A stretch of DNA of 64,000 bases from a virus. The stretch lies in IMG/VR virus record IMGVR_UViG_3300044977_000034, positions 1 to 64,000 of that record; one strand, given 5' to 3'. Positions 22,478-35,471 of this stretch are shown piece by piece. Each line of letters starts with the position of its first letter. The first letter of the stretch is position 1. Both the position numbers and the translations under genes were made by a program. The notes beneath the pieces were generated by a model that was not told the DNA's origin, did no database searches, and saw nothing but the letters and a program-made list of their open reading frames with translations.

Positions 22478-22953
22478 CCGCCAAGCTTGACGAATTTCAC
22501 CAGATCCAGCGGGCACGCGAAATTGCTCTCGACGTTGCCGGTATTACTGACCGGGCACGTTCTGATGTACCACTCGTCCGAGGTGCGCTCCTCCACGATC
22601 GCGGCTGCGCCCAGGTCGTCGCTCACGCTCACCCAGGCGAAGACGTCACCGATCGCGCGCCGAACCGAATCCACGCTGGCGACGAAGACCTCGCGGTAGG
22701 GCCAATCCCTCCGGCCGGTGAAGGTCACCCCGAGCGTCTTGACCTCGATTCGGAGCCTCGGGCCGCCCTCTTCCCAGGCGAACACGTCGCCGTTGTCGCG
22801 GTAGTTCCTGTGCTCAGCCGCCGTCGGCGCCTCTCGGAGCGGCGGAATCGTGACCCAGTAGCCTTGCGAACTGAGCCAATAGGCGAAGGCCCACTGCCCA
22901 CGCTTCGACCCGCGCAATCGGTCGAGGAATTTCGCATGTTGGCTGGTGCCCAA
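22474..22953 (-). CDS. Putative PD-(D/E)XK nuclease
   Basis: D.GD...RIEVK; start codon uncertain, lies within the tRNA. Confidence 0.55.
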   Translation of the reverse strand: MGTSQHAKFLDRLRGSKRGQWAFAYWLSSQGYWVTIPPLREAPTAAEHRNYRDNGDVFAWEEGGPRLRIEVKTLGVTFTGRRDWPYREVFVASVDSVRRAIGDVFAWVSVSDDLGAAAIVEERTSDEWYIRTCPVSNTGNVESNFACPLDLVKFVKLGG

Positions 22954-23019
22954 GGAAGGGATCGAACCTCCGACGCCCGCGCCTTCAACGCGGCGCTCTA
23001 CCAGCTGAGCTACCTGGGC
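22944..23019 (-). tRNA. tRNA-Phe(GAA) with encoded CCA
   Basis: Cloverleaf: GCCCAGG/CTTGGGC acceptor stem, TAGCTCAGCTGGTAGAGC D-arm, CCGCG-TTGAAGG-CGCGG anticodon arm, GGTTCGATCCC T-arm. Confidence 0.92.
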
Positions 23020-28386: not shown

Positions 28387-28427
28387 ATGCGCGCCGCCTA
28401 CGGCGCCCCAAAAGAGGAGTCGAGATC
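28351..28427 (+). promoter_or_regulatory. Early promoter plus GCCTA-loop hairpin and GGAGTCGA leader
   Basis: TTGACC-17-CATATA; GCGCCG-CCTA-CGGCGC. Confidence 0.7.
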
Positions 28428-28664
28428 ATGTCCCGTTTTGAAATGAAGGTGAACGATACCGCCGATTGGGCCGAGCACGATTGGCTCGTTTTCGAGGACG
28501 GCGTGATGGTTCATGGGTTCGCTGGGTCCAATGCGGCCGAGCGTTTCATCGCCCGTCGTCAGGCTGCGATCGCGATCGACAAAGAGATTGCTCGCGCTCG
28601 CCGGACGTCTCGCGTGTCGAACGCCGAGGCGCGCCGCATCCACGCTCTTTTGCGGAGGCGCTGA
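28428..28664 (+). CDS. Hypothetical early protein
   Basis: GGAGTCGA leader. Confidence 0.7.
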   Translation: MSRFEMKVNDTADWAEHDWLVFEDGVMVHGFAGSNAAERFIARRQAAIAIDKEIARARRTSRVSNAEARRIHALLRRR

Positions 28665-28666
28665 CA

Positions 28667-28730
28667 AGGCGAAACGCGATCGGCTATTGGCCGATCGCGT
28701 CCTGGCGTGAGGCGCCAGCTGACGAGCCTA
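28667..28730 (+). ncRNA. Type II hammerhead ribozyme HH1 (predicted cut after C28701)
   Basis: AGGC-GAAA-CGCGATCGGC/GCCGATCGCG-TC-CTGGCG/CGCCAG-CTGACGA-GCCT. Confidence 0.92.
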
Positions 28731-28759
28731 CCGTCTGCCATCCAACCGGAGTCGAATCC

Positions 28760-29176
28760 ATGTCACGCGAATCTGATCTGCGCCCGTTCTCGTTTGATGA
28801 TCTGCCTTGCCGCGACGGCAAGCGCGTCGAGCCCGAAAAATGGGGACCGAAATATTCCCGGCCGGTGAAACCCGGCAAGCCGGTCGATCGCTGCCCCACC
28901 AATTGCGCGAGCGGGCAGAAGTATGACTTCGACGCGGGGAAACACCGGGCGAAGATCCGGGCGGAGTTCGTCGCCCAGGCTAACGCCGATCGGCGGTCCT
29001 GGGCGGAGGGCAAGCCGCGCGCGAAGGCCTGGGGCCTCACCGAGACGATTGTCGACGTCTACAAGGCGGCCATGCGCGACAAGCGCAAGCGTGAGTTCGC
29101 CGCGCAGTCCGCAAAAAATGCCGAGTACCTACAATTTTTTCTCGACGACGACGCCCCGATCGCGAGGGCGGCATGA
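28760..29176 (+). CDS. Hypothetical early protein
   Basis: GGAGTCGAA leader before ATG 28760. Confidence 0.65.
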   Translation: MSRESDLRPFSFDDLPCRDGKRVEPEKWGPKYSRPVKPGKPVDRCPTNCASGQKYDFDAGKHRAKIRAEFVAQANADRRSWAEGKPRAKAWGLTETIVDVYKAAMRDKRKREFAAQSAKNAEYLQFFLDDDAPIARAA

Positions 29177-29358
29177 TGACCAAGTGGATTGTGACCTATC
29201 CCGGCATCACTCAAGACCTAACCCGCGCCTTCGACAACGAGTCGGAGGCCAAGCAATTCGCGCGCGTCCGCCGGGATCGCGAACTGCATATGTGGCGCCA
29301 TGTCCGCCTTGAACGGACCGAGGACAATTGCGTCACCATGATCCCGGTCAAGTTCTAA
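29173..29358 (+). CDS. Hypothetical early protein
   Basis: ATGA coupling. Confidence 0.6.
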   Translation: MMTKWIVTYPGITQDLTRAFDNESEAKQFARVRRDRELHMWRHVRLERTEDNCVTMIPVKF

Positions 29359-29424
29359 GGCGAAACGAGGAGGCCCGTCAGCGGGCTTCCTTGTCGCGCG
29401 GTGAGGCCGCGCCTGATGAGCCTA
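29358..29424 (+). ncRNA. Type II hammerhead ribozyme HH2 (predicted cut after C29395)
   Basis: AGGC-GAAA-CGAGGAGGCCCG/CGGGCTTCCTTG-TC-GCGCGG/CCGCGC-CTGATGA-GCCT. Confidence 0.92.
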
Positions 29425-29441
29425 ACCAACAGGAGTCGAAT

Positions 29442-29726
29442 ATGACAGACCGCAAGATTGATTACGTGACCTTTGACGATGACCCGGACGGGCTCGATTG
29501 GAAGGCGCCGATCTACGACAAGGACGGGACGCCTCGTCCGCAAATTGTCTTGATGGCGCTCGCCTACCGCGACGGGAGCGATGACCTCGTCGATTCGCTA
29601 AGCACCATCGATTTCTATCAGGAGCGCGGCGACTGGATTCGGGGGACGTTCCGGCGCGTGCGGGACATCCCGGCGCGTTGCGCCCATCTGCGTGAGGTCG
29701 CGGAACAGCTGGGGTTGAAGCAATGA
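29442..29726 (+). CDS. Hypothetical early protein
   Basis: GGAGTCGAA leader. Confidence 0.65.
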   Translation: MTDRKIDYVTFDDDPDGLDWKAPIYDKDGTPRPQIVLMALAYRDGSDDLVDSLSTIDFYQERGDWIRGTFRRVRDIPARCAHLREVAEQLGLKQ

Positions 29727-30013
29727 GACTGCCCACCATCCACCTGAACGGGACCGACGCACAGTCGCTCTTTGACGGCTACAAGGCCGCCCATGAGGCG
29801 ATCAAAGCCGCTCAAGAGGCGCTCGCCCAGTGCGCGCCCAATGGCCGCGACTACTACGTCCAAAAGACCGAGTCCGGCGACTGGACCGACGTACCCACCA
29901 ACGAGGCGATATATGAGCACCGCGCCCGGATGGCGGCGCTGGAAACGATCGAGCGTGACCTTGAGGCGCTCGCCCTGCACGTCATGGACGCTGACCCCAA
30001 GGTGCGGACGTGA
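29723..30013 (+). CDS. Hypothetical early protein
   Basis: PTIHLNGT...PNGRDYY; coupled ORF. Confidence 0.7.
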   Translation: MRLPTIHLNGTDAQSLFDGYKAAHEAIKAAQEALAQCAPNGRDYYVQKTESGDWTDVPTNEAIYEHRARMAALETIERDLEALALHVMDADPKVRT

Positions 30014-30080
30014 TCGGCCTCGCCTGCCTGTTCGCGCTGTTCATGTTGGCGAGCGGCAGAATATAAAAACGGTTGCCATG

Positions 30081-30160
30081 TTGACAAGTTTTGCAGTCAA
30101 CGCTATCTGAGAGGGGCGCGGCGCCTACCGCGCCCCTTAACTTTTTTGGAGTCGAATCCC
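30081..30160 (+). promoter_or_regulatory. Promoter plus CGCCTA-loop hairpin and GGAGTCGAA leader
   Basis: TTGACA-17-TATCTG; GGGGCGCGG-CGCCTA-CCGCGCCCC. Confidence 0.75.
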
Positions 30161-31069
30161 ATGCGTGACCTACACCGAGAAATTACCGACAAAATCCTCG
30201 CCCAGCTCAAGACGGGCGTGGCGCCCTGGCGCAAGCCCTGGTCTGAGCACGTCCAGGCGCACGGTTCCGTGATGCCGCGCAACGCCGTCACCGGCCGCGC
30301 CTATTCGGGCGCCAACGTCCTGTTGTTGTGGGGCGTAGCGCAGACTGAGGGCTACGGCCCGAGGTGGCTGACGTTCAAACAGGCCAAGGCGGCTGGCGGG
30401 ACTGTGCGCGCGGGCGAGCACGGCGTGGCCGTGATCTTCGTCAAGCGCATGCTGGTGCGCGATCGAAAGGACCCGGACGCGCACAAGACGATCGGTTTTC
30501 TCAAGGCCTATACCGTGTTCAACACGGCCCAGTGCGACGGCTTGCCGGACTCGGTCCTGGGCATTGGCGAGGCTCCCCTGCACCGCCCGGTGAACCCGGA
30601 CGGGCGCGATGCTGACCTCGATGCCTTCGTCGCGGCGACCGAAATTCGCTTTGTCGAGCAAGGCATCAAAGCCCAATATTCGCCCCTGTTCGACCGCATC
30701 GAGATGCCGCCTTTCGCCCAGTTCAAGGGCGCCCATCCGTACTACGCGACCATGTTCCATGAGATGGGGCACGCCACCGGCCACAAGAGCCGCCTGGACC
30801 GCAACCTCAACAACAAATTCGGCGACCGCTCCTATGCGGCCGAGGAGCTAATCGCCGAGCTAACGTCGGCCTTTGTGTGCGCGGAGTGGGGCATCGACAT
30901 GGGCGAGGCTCCGGCCGCCTACATCGAGACCTGGGTCTCGCTCCTGGCCGAGAAGGAAACGGCGATCGTGACCGCCGCTGCGGCGGCCTCGCGCGCGGTG
31001 GAGTGGATGCGGGGCGCGGCGAGCGCCGAGGAGGCGGACGAGGACGAACCCCTGCCCATGGCCGCCTAA
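30161..31069 (+). CDS. ardC: ArdC-like ssDNA-binding antirestriction protein
   Basis: PWRKPW, YSGAN, WLTFKQA, FHEMGHATGH..RL.R, YAAEELIAE. Confidence 0.88.
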   Translation: MRDLHREITDKILAQLKTGVAPWRKPWSEHVQAHGSVMPRNAVTGRAYSGANVLLLWGVAQTEGYGPRWLTFKQAKAAGGTVRAGEHGVAVIFVKRMLVRDRKDPDAHKTIGFLKAYTVFNTAQCDGLPDSVLGIGEAPLHRPVNPDGRDADLDAFVAATEIRFVEQGIKAQYSPLFDRIEMPPFAQFKGAHPYYATMFHEMGHATGHKSRLDRNLNNKFGDRSYAAEELIAELTSAFVCAEWGIDMGEAPAAYIETWVSLLAEKETAIVTAAAAASRAVEWMRGAASAEEADEDEPLPMAA

Positions 31070-31093
31070 TTCAATCCTGAGAGGAGTCGAGCA

Positions 31094-31324
31094 ATGTCTA
31101 AGCCACAGTACGTCGTAGTGATCACCTTCGCCAACGGTTCGATCGATCGCCTATCGTTCGATCGCTGGTCCCAGTGCCGGGACGTCTGCCAACACGGCAT
31201 CAGCTACAGCGGCGGTCGCGTGCGCCGCGTCGAGGTGGATTGCGCCGCGCTTGGCGGCGGCCTGCGGGCTATGTGGGACGTCTCGTGGACGGCCGAGAGT
31301 CAGCACGCTGGTCTGTACAACTAA
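31094..31324 (+). CDS. Hypothetical early protein
   Basis: GGAGTCGA leader. Confidence 0.65.
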   Translation: MSKPQYVVVITFANGSIDRLSFDRWSQCRDVCQHGISYSGGRVRRVEVDCAALGGGLRAMWDVSWTAESQHAGLYN

Positions 31325-31387
31325 GGGCGAAACGGCGGCCGAGCGATCGGCCGTTGTCGCGGCGTAAGGCGCCGCCTGATGAGCCTA
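31325..31387 (+). ncRNA. Type II hammerhead ribozyme HH3 (predicted cut after C31358)
   Basis: GGGC-GAAA-CGGCGGCCGA/TCGGCCGTTG-TC-GCGGCG/CGCCGC-CTGATGA-GCCT. Confidence 0.92.
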
Positions 31388-31401
31388 AACAGGAGTCGAA
31401 A

Positions 31402-31905
31402 ATGATTAGTGACGAAGACAAGCTTGCGGCGGCCGAGGCGCTCGACCGGGCCTATGCAAAGGCGGAGGCCTTTGACGCGGCGCAAGAGGAAGACCGCAAA
31501 TTGGATGCCTACGGGCATCTGACGTGGACGCTTGGGGATGACGATTGGATGGCGTGTTTCGACGCCGTCCGGATAGGCTCCGAGATCGCCTACCACGTCG
31601 TGGTCGACTGTGAGTCGGGCGGTTTTATCTCCACAATCGAGAAGGGCGTCGTGCCAGTTAGCGAGGCCGCGCGCCTCATTAATCTGCCGAGCCAGTACGT
31701 TGATATGGCGATCGAGAACCATCTCGACGCGCGCCGTAAACGCGAACCCGTGGGCCGGTTCGCCTATCGCGGCTGCGAGAAGCGCTGGGCGCGACATATC
31801 AAGCAGCTCATCAAGCAAAAGCCGGAGCCCCAGGACGATGACGTCGAGGACGTTGACCAAGCGGCCGAGCTACGCAAGGCGGCGCTGAATCGGGGGCAAC
31901 CATGA
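31402..31905 (+). CDS. Hypothetical early protein
   Basis: GGAGTCGAA leader. Confidence 0.65.
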   Translation: MISDEDKLAAAEALDRAYAKAEAFDAAQEEDRKLDAYGHLTWTLGDDDWMACFDAVRIGSEIAYHVVVDCESGGFISTIEKGVVPVSEAARLINLPSQYVDMAIENHLDARRKREPVGRFAYRGCEKRWARHIKQLIKQKPEPQDDDVEDVDQAAELRKAALNRGQP

Positions 31906-32135: not shown

Positions 32136-32209
32136 GAACGCGAGCGGGACGGCGTCGAGCAATCGTCGCCGCCTCGCGGGCGCTCTTGCCCGGTTAAGGA
32201 GTCGAACCC

Positions 32210-32750: not shown

Positions 32751-32826
32751 TTGCCTCTTTTCGCATAGCATGCCATATCAGGACCGGGCGGCGCCTACCG
32801 CCCGGTTTTCTTTTGGAGTCGAAATT
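32751..32826 (+). promoter_or_regulatory. Promoter plus CGCCTA-loop hairpin and GGAGTCGAA leader
   Basis: TTGCCT-17-CATATC; ACCGGGCGG-CGCCTA-CCGCCCGGT; upstream ATAAAAAC.GT.GCCATGTTG shared with the 30081 promoter. Confidence 0.7.
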
Positions 32827-35399: not shown

Positions 35400-35471
35400 A
35401 GGCCAGCGCGCGCGCCTCGACGTTTCGGGGCGCGGTCGCGGGCAATCCGCCCGGTAGAGAGAGTCGAACCA

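Follow-up and report, generated by a model that had tools for sequence, protein, structure and literature searches.

Three type II hammerhead ribozymes between stop codons and start boxes in a phage genome

Results

Genes and transcription units at the locus

The window, by which we mean the whole stretch of 64,000 nucleotides that was analysed, is DNA of an uncultured 78-kb phage with genes for a terminase, ArdC, HNH, SNF2, RecT and a primase. Three copies of a type II hammerhead ribozyme, here called HH1, HH2 and HH3, lie within 2.7 kb on the strand of the genes, at the junctions listed in Table 1. The start at 28760 of the gene that follows HH1 is supported by homologues in the related phages L025 and L048, which align from residue 1 and place HH1 outside the coding sequence. 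The ArdC-like gene matches Pfam ArdcN (1.4e-35) and MPTase-PolyVal (1e-40) as well as phrog_7245, an anti-restriction protein (3.2e-80).

The first-pass annotation had assigned all three elements to a single early polycistron. Since a strong terminator-like hairpin and a promoter-like box are found between HH2 and HH3, the region is probably organized as two transcription units instead, and the three copies are probably divided between them, with the boundary at 30111-30146.

Table 1. Features of the hammerhead region in window coordinates
Feature	Position	Strand	Remarks
Gene upstream of HH1, 78 aa	28428..28664	+	Without Pfam or PHROG match; homologue in L025
HH1, type II	28667..28730	+	Predicted cut after C28701; stems II/III/I 4/12/7 pairs; minimum free energy -36.2 kcal/mol
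GGAGTCGA start box, gene 28760-29176	28748..28755	+	17 nt past HH1
Two-gene block, HH1 to HH2 cuts	28760..29358	+	138 aa + 61 aa, overlapping ATGA
HH2, type II	29358..29424	+	Predicted cut after C29395; stems II/III/I 4/13/7 pairs; minimum free energy -39.9 kcal/mol
GGAGTCGA start box, gene 29442-29726	29432..29439	+	7 nt past HH2
Two-gene block after HH2	29442..30013	+	94 aa + 96 aa
Promoter-like box, TTGACA-17-TATCTG	30081-30109	+	Read by eye
Terminator-like GC-rich hairpin with T-run	30111..30146	+	Terminator scan, 11 pairs; abuts ArdC start box
ArdC-like anti-restriction gene (302 aa) and 76-aa gene, upstream of HH3	30161..31324	+	Pfam/PHROG matches
HH3, type II	31325..31387	+	Predicted cut after C31358; stems II/III/I 4/11/7 pairs; minimum free energy -36.0 kcal/mol
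GGAGTCGA start box, gene 31402-31905	31392..31399	+	4 nt past HH3

Core and fold of the three elements

Each copy consists, in order, of the stem II 5' strand (AGGC or GGGC), GAAA, the stem III hairpin, GUC, the stem I hairpin, CUGA(C/U)GA and GCCU, the last of which is the stem II 3' strand in all three. The topology is that of type II, with terminal loops on stems I and III and an open stem II. Under the acceptance rules of Perreault et al. 2011 for core and helices, the invariant core (C3 U4 G5 A6 N7 G8 A9, G12 A13 A14, A15.1, U16.1, H17) is present with zero deviation in all three copies. The pairs next to the core are standard throughout (10.1-11.1 G-C, 15.1-16.1 A-U, 1.1-2.1 C-G or G-C), and G-U is the sole non-Watson-Crick pair type in the helices; such a pair opens stem II of HH3. 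Stem II has 4 bp in each copy and stem I has 6-7 pairs, with 6 bp plus a loop closed by U..G. Stem III measures 12, 13 and 11 bp in HH1, HH2 and HH3, compared with a family mode of 6-7. The minimum-energy fold of every copy is the hammerhead three-way junction, with z-scores of -4.65, -3.88 and -2.87 in the same order. The first-pass annotation had described a complete type II core at these coordinates, stems I and III that stay paired in all copies and a conserved loop I (UGAGG in HH1 and HH2, UAAGG in HH3). These observations were reproduced, and a general descriptor arrived at the same three cut positions.

The core pattern is matched three times, against 0.05 expected. A permissive descriptor covering types I, II and III returned just these three sites on both strands of the whole 78-kb record, and 0 in 20 shuffles.

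A pseudoknot-less subclass below the Rfam cut-off

A search with the Rfam Hammerhead_II model, which had been suggested as a check on the elements, did not recover them at its cut-off: RF02276 gave 24.7 bits for HH2 and 23.9 bits for HH3 against a gathering score of 37, HH1 was absent from its matches at E<=10, and the sole Rfam match at gathering score in the whole window was a tRNA. A custom covariance model, R1, was trained on 20 IMG/VR copies of the pseudoknot-less subclass from unrelated phages, none of them from this phage clade. R1 scored HH1, HH2 and HH3 at 55.0, 51.8 and 46.9 bits (E 1e-10 to 1e-8), and the next-best match, with filters off, stood at 11.7 bits. Degenerate copies were sought between 26 and 38 kb with a relaxed model search without filters, and none exceeded that value.

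The sub-threshold Rfam scores arise because RF02276 is built around a pseudoknot that these copies lack. Its cut-off is passed by 24 pseudoknot-type copies and by one of 12 sampled pseudoknot-less copies from other phages; failure at this threshold is a limit of that model and not of the hammerhead class, and a common pseudoknot-less subclass of type II escapes the standard cut-off. When loop I was compared with the tail that follows stem II for a pseudoknot of at least 4 pairs, the longest pairing was AGG/CCU, which is 3 pairs. We considered this pairing as a pseudoknot and rejected it, since loop I varies across the subclass and CCU is already taken by stem II. Perreault et al. 2011 (PMC3088659) state that a pseudoknot is used by just ~40% of hammerheads. 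In copies of the Rfam type it is the pseudoknot that makes cleavage fast, and the three copies lack it.

Stem I of the subclass shows double changes at all six pairs and no broken pair in 30 copies, a set chosen for pairing. Among the unselected raw core-pattern matches in IMG/VR, both helices are present in 123 of 169, against 0.065 expected from shuffled inserts. AGGC/GCCU is the stem II consensus of the whole subclass in unrelated phages. The U at the 5' end of loop I and the A just 5' of stem II are invariant (30/30 subclass members), and a purine usually follows directly after stem II. We infer that a tertiary contact between this U and this A might replace the pseudoknot.

Copies in related phages and other genomes

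Further copies occupy gene junctions of the homologous region in L025 (four), L048 (two) and L123 (three), and the 13 invariant core positions are intact in these nine as in the three described here. The counterpart of HH2, L025:1265-1331(-), differs by a G-C to A-U exchange in stem I. That of HH3, L123:3909-3970, has an identical stem I and a stem III of wholly different sequence that is still paired; it likewise lies upstream of a homologue of gene 31402-31905. The type II hammerhead identity of the three elements thus rests on the full core, the fold, the custom covariance model and the compensatory changes in the copies of relatives. In L124-L126, which carry more distant relatives of the gene after HH3 (41-48% identity), no hammerhead was found within 4 kb, and the elements are therefore dispensable for that gene.

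A blastn search of 28400-31500 against 50,697 phage records gave no match. Loci selected by ArdC in 80 bacterial genomes were at most 45% identical and contained only weak, low-quality descriptor matches, so no host or prophage copy was found there. A search of sequencing runs matched a single soil-metagenome DNA run, with a small word share (0.14), and no RNA run.

Placement between stop codons and start boxes

The first-pass annotation had placed each element at a stop codon and 4-17 nt before a ribosome-binding site, and both parts of this claim hold. The stop codons lie at 28662-28664 (2 nt before HH1), at 29356-29358, where the last A of the TAA is the first base of HH2, and at 31322-31324 (directly before HH3); the distances to the start boxes are those in Table 1. 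Among the IMG/VR copies of the family, 86% lie no more than 40 nt from a co-oriented stop codon and 81% lie 12-32 nt upstream of a start codon with a Shine-Dalgarno sequence. The stop codon abuts or overlaps stem II (within 1 nt) in 60 of 120 family cases and often forms part of the ribozyme. The family as a whole shows this order of stop codon, ribozyme and ribosome-binding site. The first-pass annotation also proposed that a terminating ribosome over the 5' strand of stem II could couple cleavage to translation; what the analysis shows on this point is the closeness of stop codon and stem II across the family.

The last 12 bases of the ribozyme and the start box are nearly identical across junctions. 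In this clade the conserved start box can be preceded by any of three interchangeable types of leader, of which the ribozymes are one. There are 13 start boxes on the + strand, and the motif GCCUA precedes 11 of them (expectation, 0.03). Where it is promoter-proximal it is shown in a hairpin loop, and in the ribozymes it is held in stem II.

Discussion

We think it likely that the three elements are catalytically competent type II hammerheads that are transcribed in the rightward early/replication region and split its messages into separate two-gene blocks. Once its 3' strand has been made, each ribozyme would fold and then cut itself after the C of GUC, precisely at a point that leaves the stop codon on one side and the following ribosome-binding site on the other. 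Of the two products, the one upstream would carry the long, GC-rich hairpin of stem III at its end, together with an overhang of one base and a 2',3'-cyclic phosphate. The downstream product would have its 5'-hydroxyl end flush with the stem I hairpin, and a leader of about 20-35 nt and the start box would come next. Hairpin-capped products, which had been part of the polycistron-cutting proposal, are predicted by folding: the upstream 3' end forms a hairpin of -19.6 to -23.5 kcal/mol with a 1-nt overhang, and the downstream 5' end a flush hairpin of -10.7 to -12.3 kcal/mol. Stem II contributes only about -6 kcal/mol in these predictions, and because its 4 bp alone would join the two pieces, they should separate. 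As a likely result, each two-gene block would become a message of its own, and its stability and translation might thereby be freed from those of its neighbours, with the ribozyme acting as a natural insulator.

Synthetic insulators such as RiboJ place an engineered type III satellite hammerhead and a hairpin before the ribosome-binding site, which keeps the leader constant irrespective of the upstream sequence. The elements described here differ in being natural type II copies with a putative insulating effect. A direct effect on initiation was also considered. Minimum-energy folds of the leaders with and without the ribozyme showed no clear, consistent change in Shine-Dalgarno accessibility, and a direct translational switch was dropped because the folded leaders neither mask nor unmask this sequence consistently. 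It is possible, though we regard it as doubtful, that GCCUA is a leader signal common to nearly all messages of the clade and is unmasked by self-cleavage for a protein or RNA partner. If so, processed messages would gain the leader of a primary transcript, consisting of a 5' hairpin, GCCUA and the start box.

Several other explanations of the locus deserve consideration. The elements could be inactive look-alikes, in which stable hairpin pairs only punctuate the transcript structurally, by blocking exonucleases or causing pauses, and do not cleave themselves. Scores under the Rfam cut-off and the absent pseudoknot might be read in this way, and the unusually long stem III would be a good exonuclease block by itself. 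However, the low Rfam score is explained by the model, as the near-complete failure of sampled pseudoknot-less copies from other phages illustrates, and all 13 core positions are kept in every copy here and in the nine of the relatives. Hairpins that served only as structures would have no reason to retain the unpaired CUGANGA and GAAA. We consider this explanation very unlikely. Even less credible to us is that cleavage is followed by ligation, with the 694-nt block between HH1 and HH2 circularised or spliced out through reverse ligation or a host RtcB-type ligase. The stem II strands (A/GGGC with GCCU) are identical or compatible among the copies, so that the 3' half of one ribozyme can pair with the 5' half of the next and rebuild a nicked hammerhead, and each fragment end bears a complete hairpin. 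Ends with a 5'-hydroxyl and a 2',3'-cyclic phosphate are substrates for both reverse ligation and RtcB-type ligation, which also counts in favour. The same possibility was raised by Perreault et al. 2011 (PMC3088659), but these authors reported that they had looked for circles and spliced RNAs derived from such clusters without success (data not shown). Moreover, a stem II consensus of AGGC/GCCU throughout the subclass, in unrelated phages, already accounts for the identity between copies. Four base pairs worth about -6 kcal/mol would close a 690-nt loop weakly, and HH3 is probably on another transcript.

A different role might lie in genome exchange, with the ribozyme and start box serving mainly as a homology patch at which related phages swap gene blocks, and cleavage being secondary. 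The positions of ribozymes shift between relatives and the flanking genes differ: L025 has its four copies, L123 has copies directly after ArdC and after the homologue of 29723-30013, and in L048 a different gene follows the copy that trails the 61-aa gene. The near identity of the junctions, from the last 12 ribozyme bases through the start box, would suit such a patch. Recombination sites, however, are not required to keep core positions and helices intact by compensatory change, as these copies do, and all copies are in gene orientation. We consider an exchange function unlikely as the main one; since it is compatible with cleavage, it would be an added role and not a true rival of message processing.

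The preferred reading, self-cleavage between gene blocks, draws on work on equivalent prophage clusters. Clustered hammerheads flanking prophage genes were described by Perreault et al. 2011 (PMC3088659), who proposed that they process polycistrons. Cleavage was seen in vitro for three triples, those of A. tumefaciens (around ardA), A. caulinodans and C. scindens, and for the first of them also in E. coli (PMC3088659). From this literature self-cleavage may be carried over to copies of the present kind, and cleavage in this phage, together with its purpose, is what we infer; what these clusters do for their phages is still described as unexplained in the literature (PMC6765202). The present locus likewise contains several co-oriented copies within a few kb of phage genome that flank single genes or short blocks. 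It shares with the earlier clusters (PMC3088659) the type II form, the two to three copies in a few kb of a phage early region, the gene orientation, a nearby anti-restriction gene and the proposed role of cutting long phage transcripts. It differs in its anti-restriction gene, which is of the ArdC-like kind instead of ArdA and has no ribozyme immediately beside it; self-cleavage of the present copies is predicted.

In D. vulgaris, cyPhyRNA-seq has shown that type II copies are cleaved inside cells (Olzog et al. 2021, PMC8782182). Like the present elements, those copies lie near genes of phage type, and two of them are close neighbours; they belong to another host and accompany other genes, and cutting of the copies in this phage is a prediction. 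With the RF02276 consensus the three elements share the core, the AGGCGAAAC start, the capped stems I and III and the open stem II. The Rfam type, however, has a 2-bp stem II and a pseudoknot of at least 4 bp between loop I and the 3' tail, whereas in the copies here stem II has 4 bp, the loop on the 6-bp stem I reads U-NNN-G, and a tail of this kind is missing. The putative contact that takes the place of the pseudoknot recalls the loop 1-loop 2 motif of viroid and satellite hammerheads (Dufour et al. 2008, PMC2632901), with which it shares the 5' U of loop 1 and an A equivalent to the 3' end of loop 2. In contrast to that motif, loop 2 is opened here and its ends are flanking mRNA, so that the A lies within the upstream stop codon in many copies, and the penultimate loop 1 pyrimidine is not kept (G in these three copies).

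Collectively, the arrangement has been known in phages since 2011, and the three copies are a clean, ordinary example of it that leaves the accepted picture unchanged. As a well-documented example with comparison phages, they offer a clean system for studying the effects of cleavage on the stability and translation of phage messages.

Identity of the elements

Three intergenic elements of the phage genome, HH1 to HH3, are securely identified as type II hammerhead ribozymes. Reading of the sequence bears out the positions and full core reported in the first-pass annotation: each element runs through a 4-nt strand, GAAA, a long hairpin, GUC, a second hairpin, CUGA(C/U)GA and GCCU, the type II permutation in which stem II is open and stems I and III are capped, and the core-adjacent pairs are standard in all three. 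The core pattern was matched three times against 0.05 expected. A permissive descriptor, covering all three permutations with stems of at least 3 pairs (at least 2 for stem II), found only HH1-HH3 on either strand of the complete 78,058-base virus record (the window plus its remainder, L128) and had no match in 20 shuffles; the cuts it predicts are those proposed in the first pass. On folding, the three-way junction is both the minimum-energy and the centroid structure of each element. A stop codon lies 2 nt upstream of HH1, shares the first base of HH2 and abuts HH3, and an extended ribosome-binding site (GGAGTCGA, the start box) follows 17, 7 and 4 nt downstream, respectively.

Coordinates of the hammerhead elements and neighbouring features
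Feature	Position	Strand	Description
HH1	28667-28730	+	Intergenic; stem II 5' strand AGGC; predicted cut after C28701
HH2	29358-29424	+	Intergenic; stem II 5' strand AGGC; predicted cut after C29395
HH3	31325-31387	+	Intergenic; stem II 5' strand GGGC; predicted cut after C31358
Terminator-like hairpin	30111-30146		11 pairs, then a T-run, between HH2 and HH3; ranked first by terminator scan
GC-rich hairpins with T-runs	30081-30146; 32751-32812		Resemble intrinsic terminators; abut the next start box
GCCTA sites	18433-54658, e.g. 18433, 28396, 30123, 32793, 50471, 54644	+	At + strand start boxes
Third leader type	32136-32209; 35400-35471		Placed between a stop codon and a start box; copies 79% alike
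tRNA gene	22947-23019	-	59.2 bits; tRNA-Phe (GAA), from reading of the anticodon loop; adjoins terminase genes

At the gathering score, Rfam returned no hammerhead in the whole window, its sole match being a tRNA. Under a relaxed threshold its Hammerhead_II model (RF02276, cut-off 37) gave HH2 24.7 bits and HH3 23.9 bits, and HH1 was absent even then. The model misses these elements because its consensus expects stem II to be 2 bp long and a tail to be pseudoknotted to loop I, both absent here. Scanning IMG/VR with the shared core pattern yielded at least 120 contigs, with up to six copies per locus among the matches listed. From these we separated a pseudoknot-less subclass resembling HH1-HH3, in which stem II is a 4-bp AGGC/GCCU helix, mostly with an A after it, and stem I has 6 bp and is capped by a U-NNN-G loop; only 1 of 12 subclass copies passed the gathering score, whereas it was passed by 24 copies of the pseudoknot type from four loci. 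Within the phage, the loop I conservation reported in the first pass holds (UGAGG, UGAGG and UAAGG), but across the subclass only the flanking U and G are kept. A covariance model built from 20 subclass copies of unrelated phages, leaving out this clade, scored HH1, HH2 and HH3 at 55.0, 51.8 and 46.9 bits and matched no other site genome-wide; in an unfiltered search of 26-38 kb, the next match reached only 11.7 bits. Dense arrays are common in IMG/VR, since five uncultured phages (L016, L020, L034, L037 and L117) carry 4-6 or more pseudoknot-type type II hammerheads within a few kb.

Conservation and placement

Both helices were present in 123 of 169 raw core matches listed from IMG/VR, against 0.065 expected from shuffled inserts. 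Thirty subclass copies show compensatory changes at all six stem I pairs and no broken pair; because that set had been selected for pairing, the unselected count is the fairer test of conservation. Three contigs, L025, L048 and L123 (one contig with L067), are true relatives of the phage, sharing its start box and having neighbouring proteins 57-95% identical to its own. Their homologous regions hold 4, 2 and 3 hammerheads, respectively. The L123 copy before the homologue of gene 31402-31905 has the stem I of HH3 and a wholly different, yet paired, stem III, and in the L025 counterpart of HH2 a stem I G-C is exchanged for A-U. Ribozyme positions vary among these relatives: L123 has hammerheads after the homologue of 29723-30013 and directly after ArdC, and the L048 copy downstream of a 61-aa gene sits before a different gene. 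No hammerhead was found near the more distant homologues L124-L126.

The stop-ribozyme-start placement is typical of phage type II hammerheads rather than peculiar to this phage, as the same arrangement recurs across 139 surveyed copies (136 listed from IMG/VR plus HH1-HH3). A co-oriented frame of at least 40 codons ends, by its stop codon, no more than 40 nt upstream in 120 of them. In half of these (60/120) the stop codon ends no more than 1 base from the stem II GGC; in 35 of those 60 it reaches exactly to the edge of the GGC, with its final base opening stem II. Start codons preceded by a Shine-Dalgarno sequence follow 113/139 copies, mostly 12-32 nt downstream.

Transcription units and leaders

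HH1-HH3 lie within a rightward block of small genes without known family, an ArdC-like anti-restriction gene, an HNH endonuclease and a SNF2 helicase; from about 25.8 kb the terminase genes read in the opposite, leftward direction. The first-pass annotation had all three copies on one early polycistron, a layout that is not supported as stated, since a terminator-like hairpin separates HH2 from HH3. This hairpin is preceded by a promoter-like box (TTGACA-17-TATCTG), and the gene at 28428 by a similar box and a small hairpin. Given the hairpin with its T-run and these boxes, two transcription units are likely, one probably running from gene A through HH1, a gene pair, HH2 and a second gene pair to the terminator, the other comprising ArdC with one gene, HH3 and further genes. 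Each of the two GC-rich hairpins with T-runs has a promoter-like box upstream, with predicted transcripts starting at the hairpin foot, and may serve both as the end of one unit and as a 5'-terminal cap for the one that follows.

The window has 15 start boxes (3.6 expected); 13 precede start codons on the + strand, and the box is common to related phages. GCCTA stands 0-30 nt upstream of 11 of these 13 (0.03 expected). Hammerhead strands account for only three of the 11 sites, and several others occupy the loop of a GC-rich hairpin directly downstream of a promoter-like box; the pattern recurs in L025, L048 and L123. One idea is that a protein recognises GCCTA, as it would a boxB-like element. 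A third leader type, conserved in L048 and L123, lacks the hammerhead core in both its copies. One copy gave a weak, non-significant match (18.2 bits, cut-off 41.2, E 5.4) to RAGATH-10 (RF03147), which comes from a motif set originally discovered in the vicinity of genes that accompany hammerhead and twister ribozymes.

Proposed function

Cleavage is predicted to leave the upstream product with a 3' hairpin (-19.6 to -23.5 kcal/mol) and one unpaired base, and the downstream product with a flush 5' hairpin (-10.7 to -12.3 kcal/mol); their association through stem II would be worth only about -6 kcal/mol. Stem III measures 11-13 bp, which places it among the longest 5% in a family with a mode of 6-7 bp and for this reason fits a 3' protective hairpin. 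The nucleases that usually degrade bacterial RNA are expected to enter poorly at a 5'-OH that is paired or at a cyclic-phosphate 3' end closed by a hairpin, and the cleaved messages would carry such ends. A role in transcript processing is likely on this analysis. Folding of the HH1-HH3 leaders revealed no consistent change in Shine-Dalgarno accessibility upon cleavage, and the coupling of cleavage to translation claimed in the first pass is not supported as stated.

Comparison with known hammerheads

The first base of loop I is U, and the base directly 5' of stem II is A, in 30/30 subclass members. Their counterparts are the U at the 5' end of loop 1 and the A at the 3' end of loop 2, two bases that most natural hammerheads conserve and that are joined by reverse Hoogsteen pairing in the structures from Schistosoma and sTRSV (PMC2632901). 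Unlike in those ribozymes, loop 2 is opened in the subclass and the A often belongs to the stop codon. A similar loop-loop tertiary contact may therefore form in the subclass, judging from these invariant bases.

Natural type II hammerheads were described by Perreault et al. 2011 (PMC3088659), who found that prophages often have multiple copies around single genes or short gene blocks, demonstrated cleavage for triples of A. tumefaciens (flanking ardA), A. caulinodans and C. scindens, sought circular or spliced products and found none, and proposed that the ribozymes process long phage transcripts. A 2019 review still termed the purpose of such clusters undefined (PMC6765202), and in D. vulgaris, type II copies close to phage genes were later found to cleave in vivo (Olzog et al. 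2021, PMC8782182). HH1-HH3 are thus a further case of the type II hammerhead clusters already described in prophages and phages.
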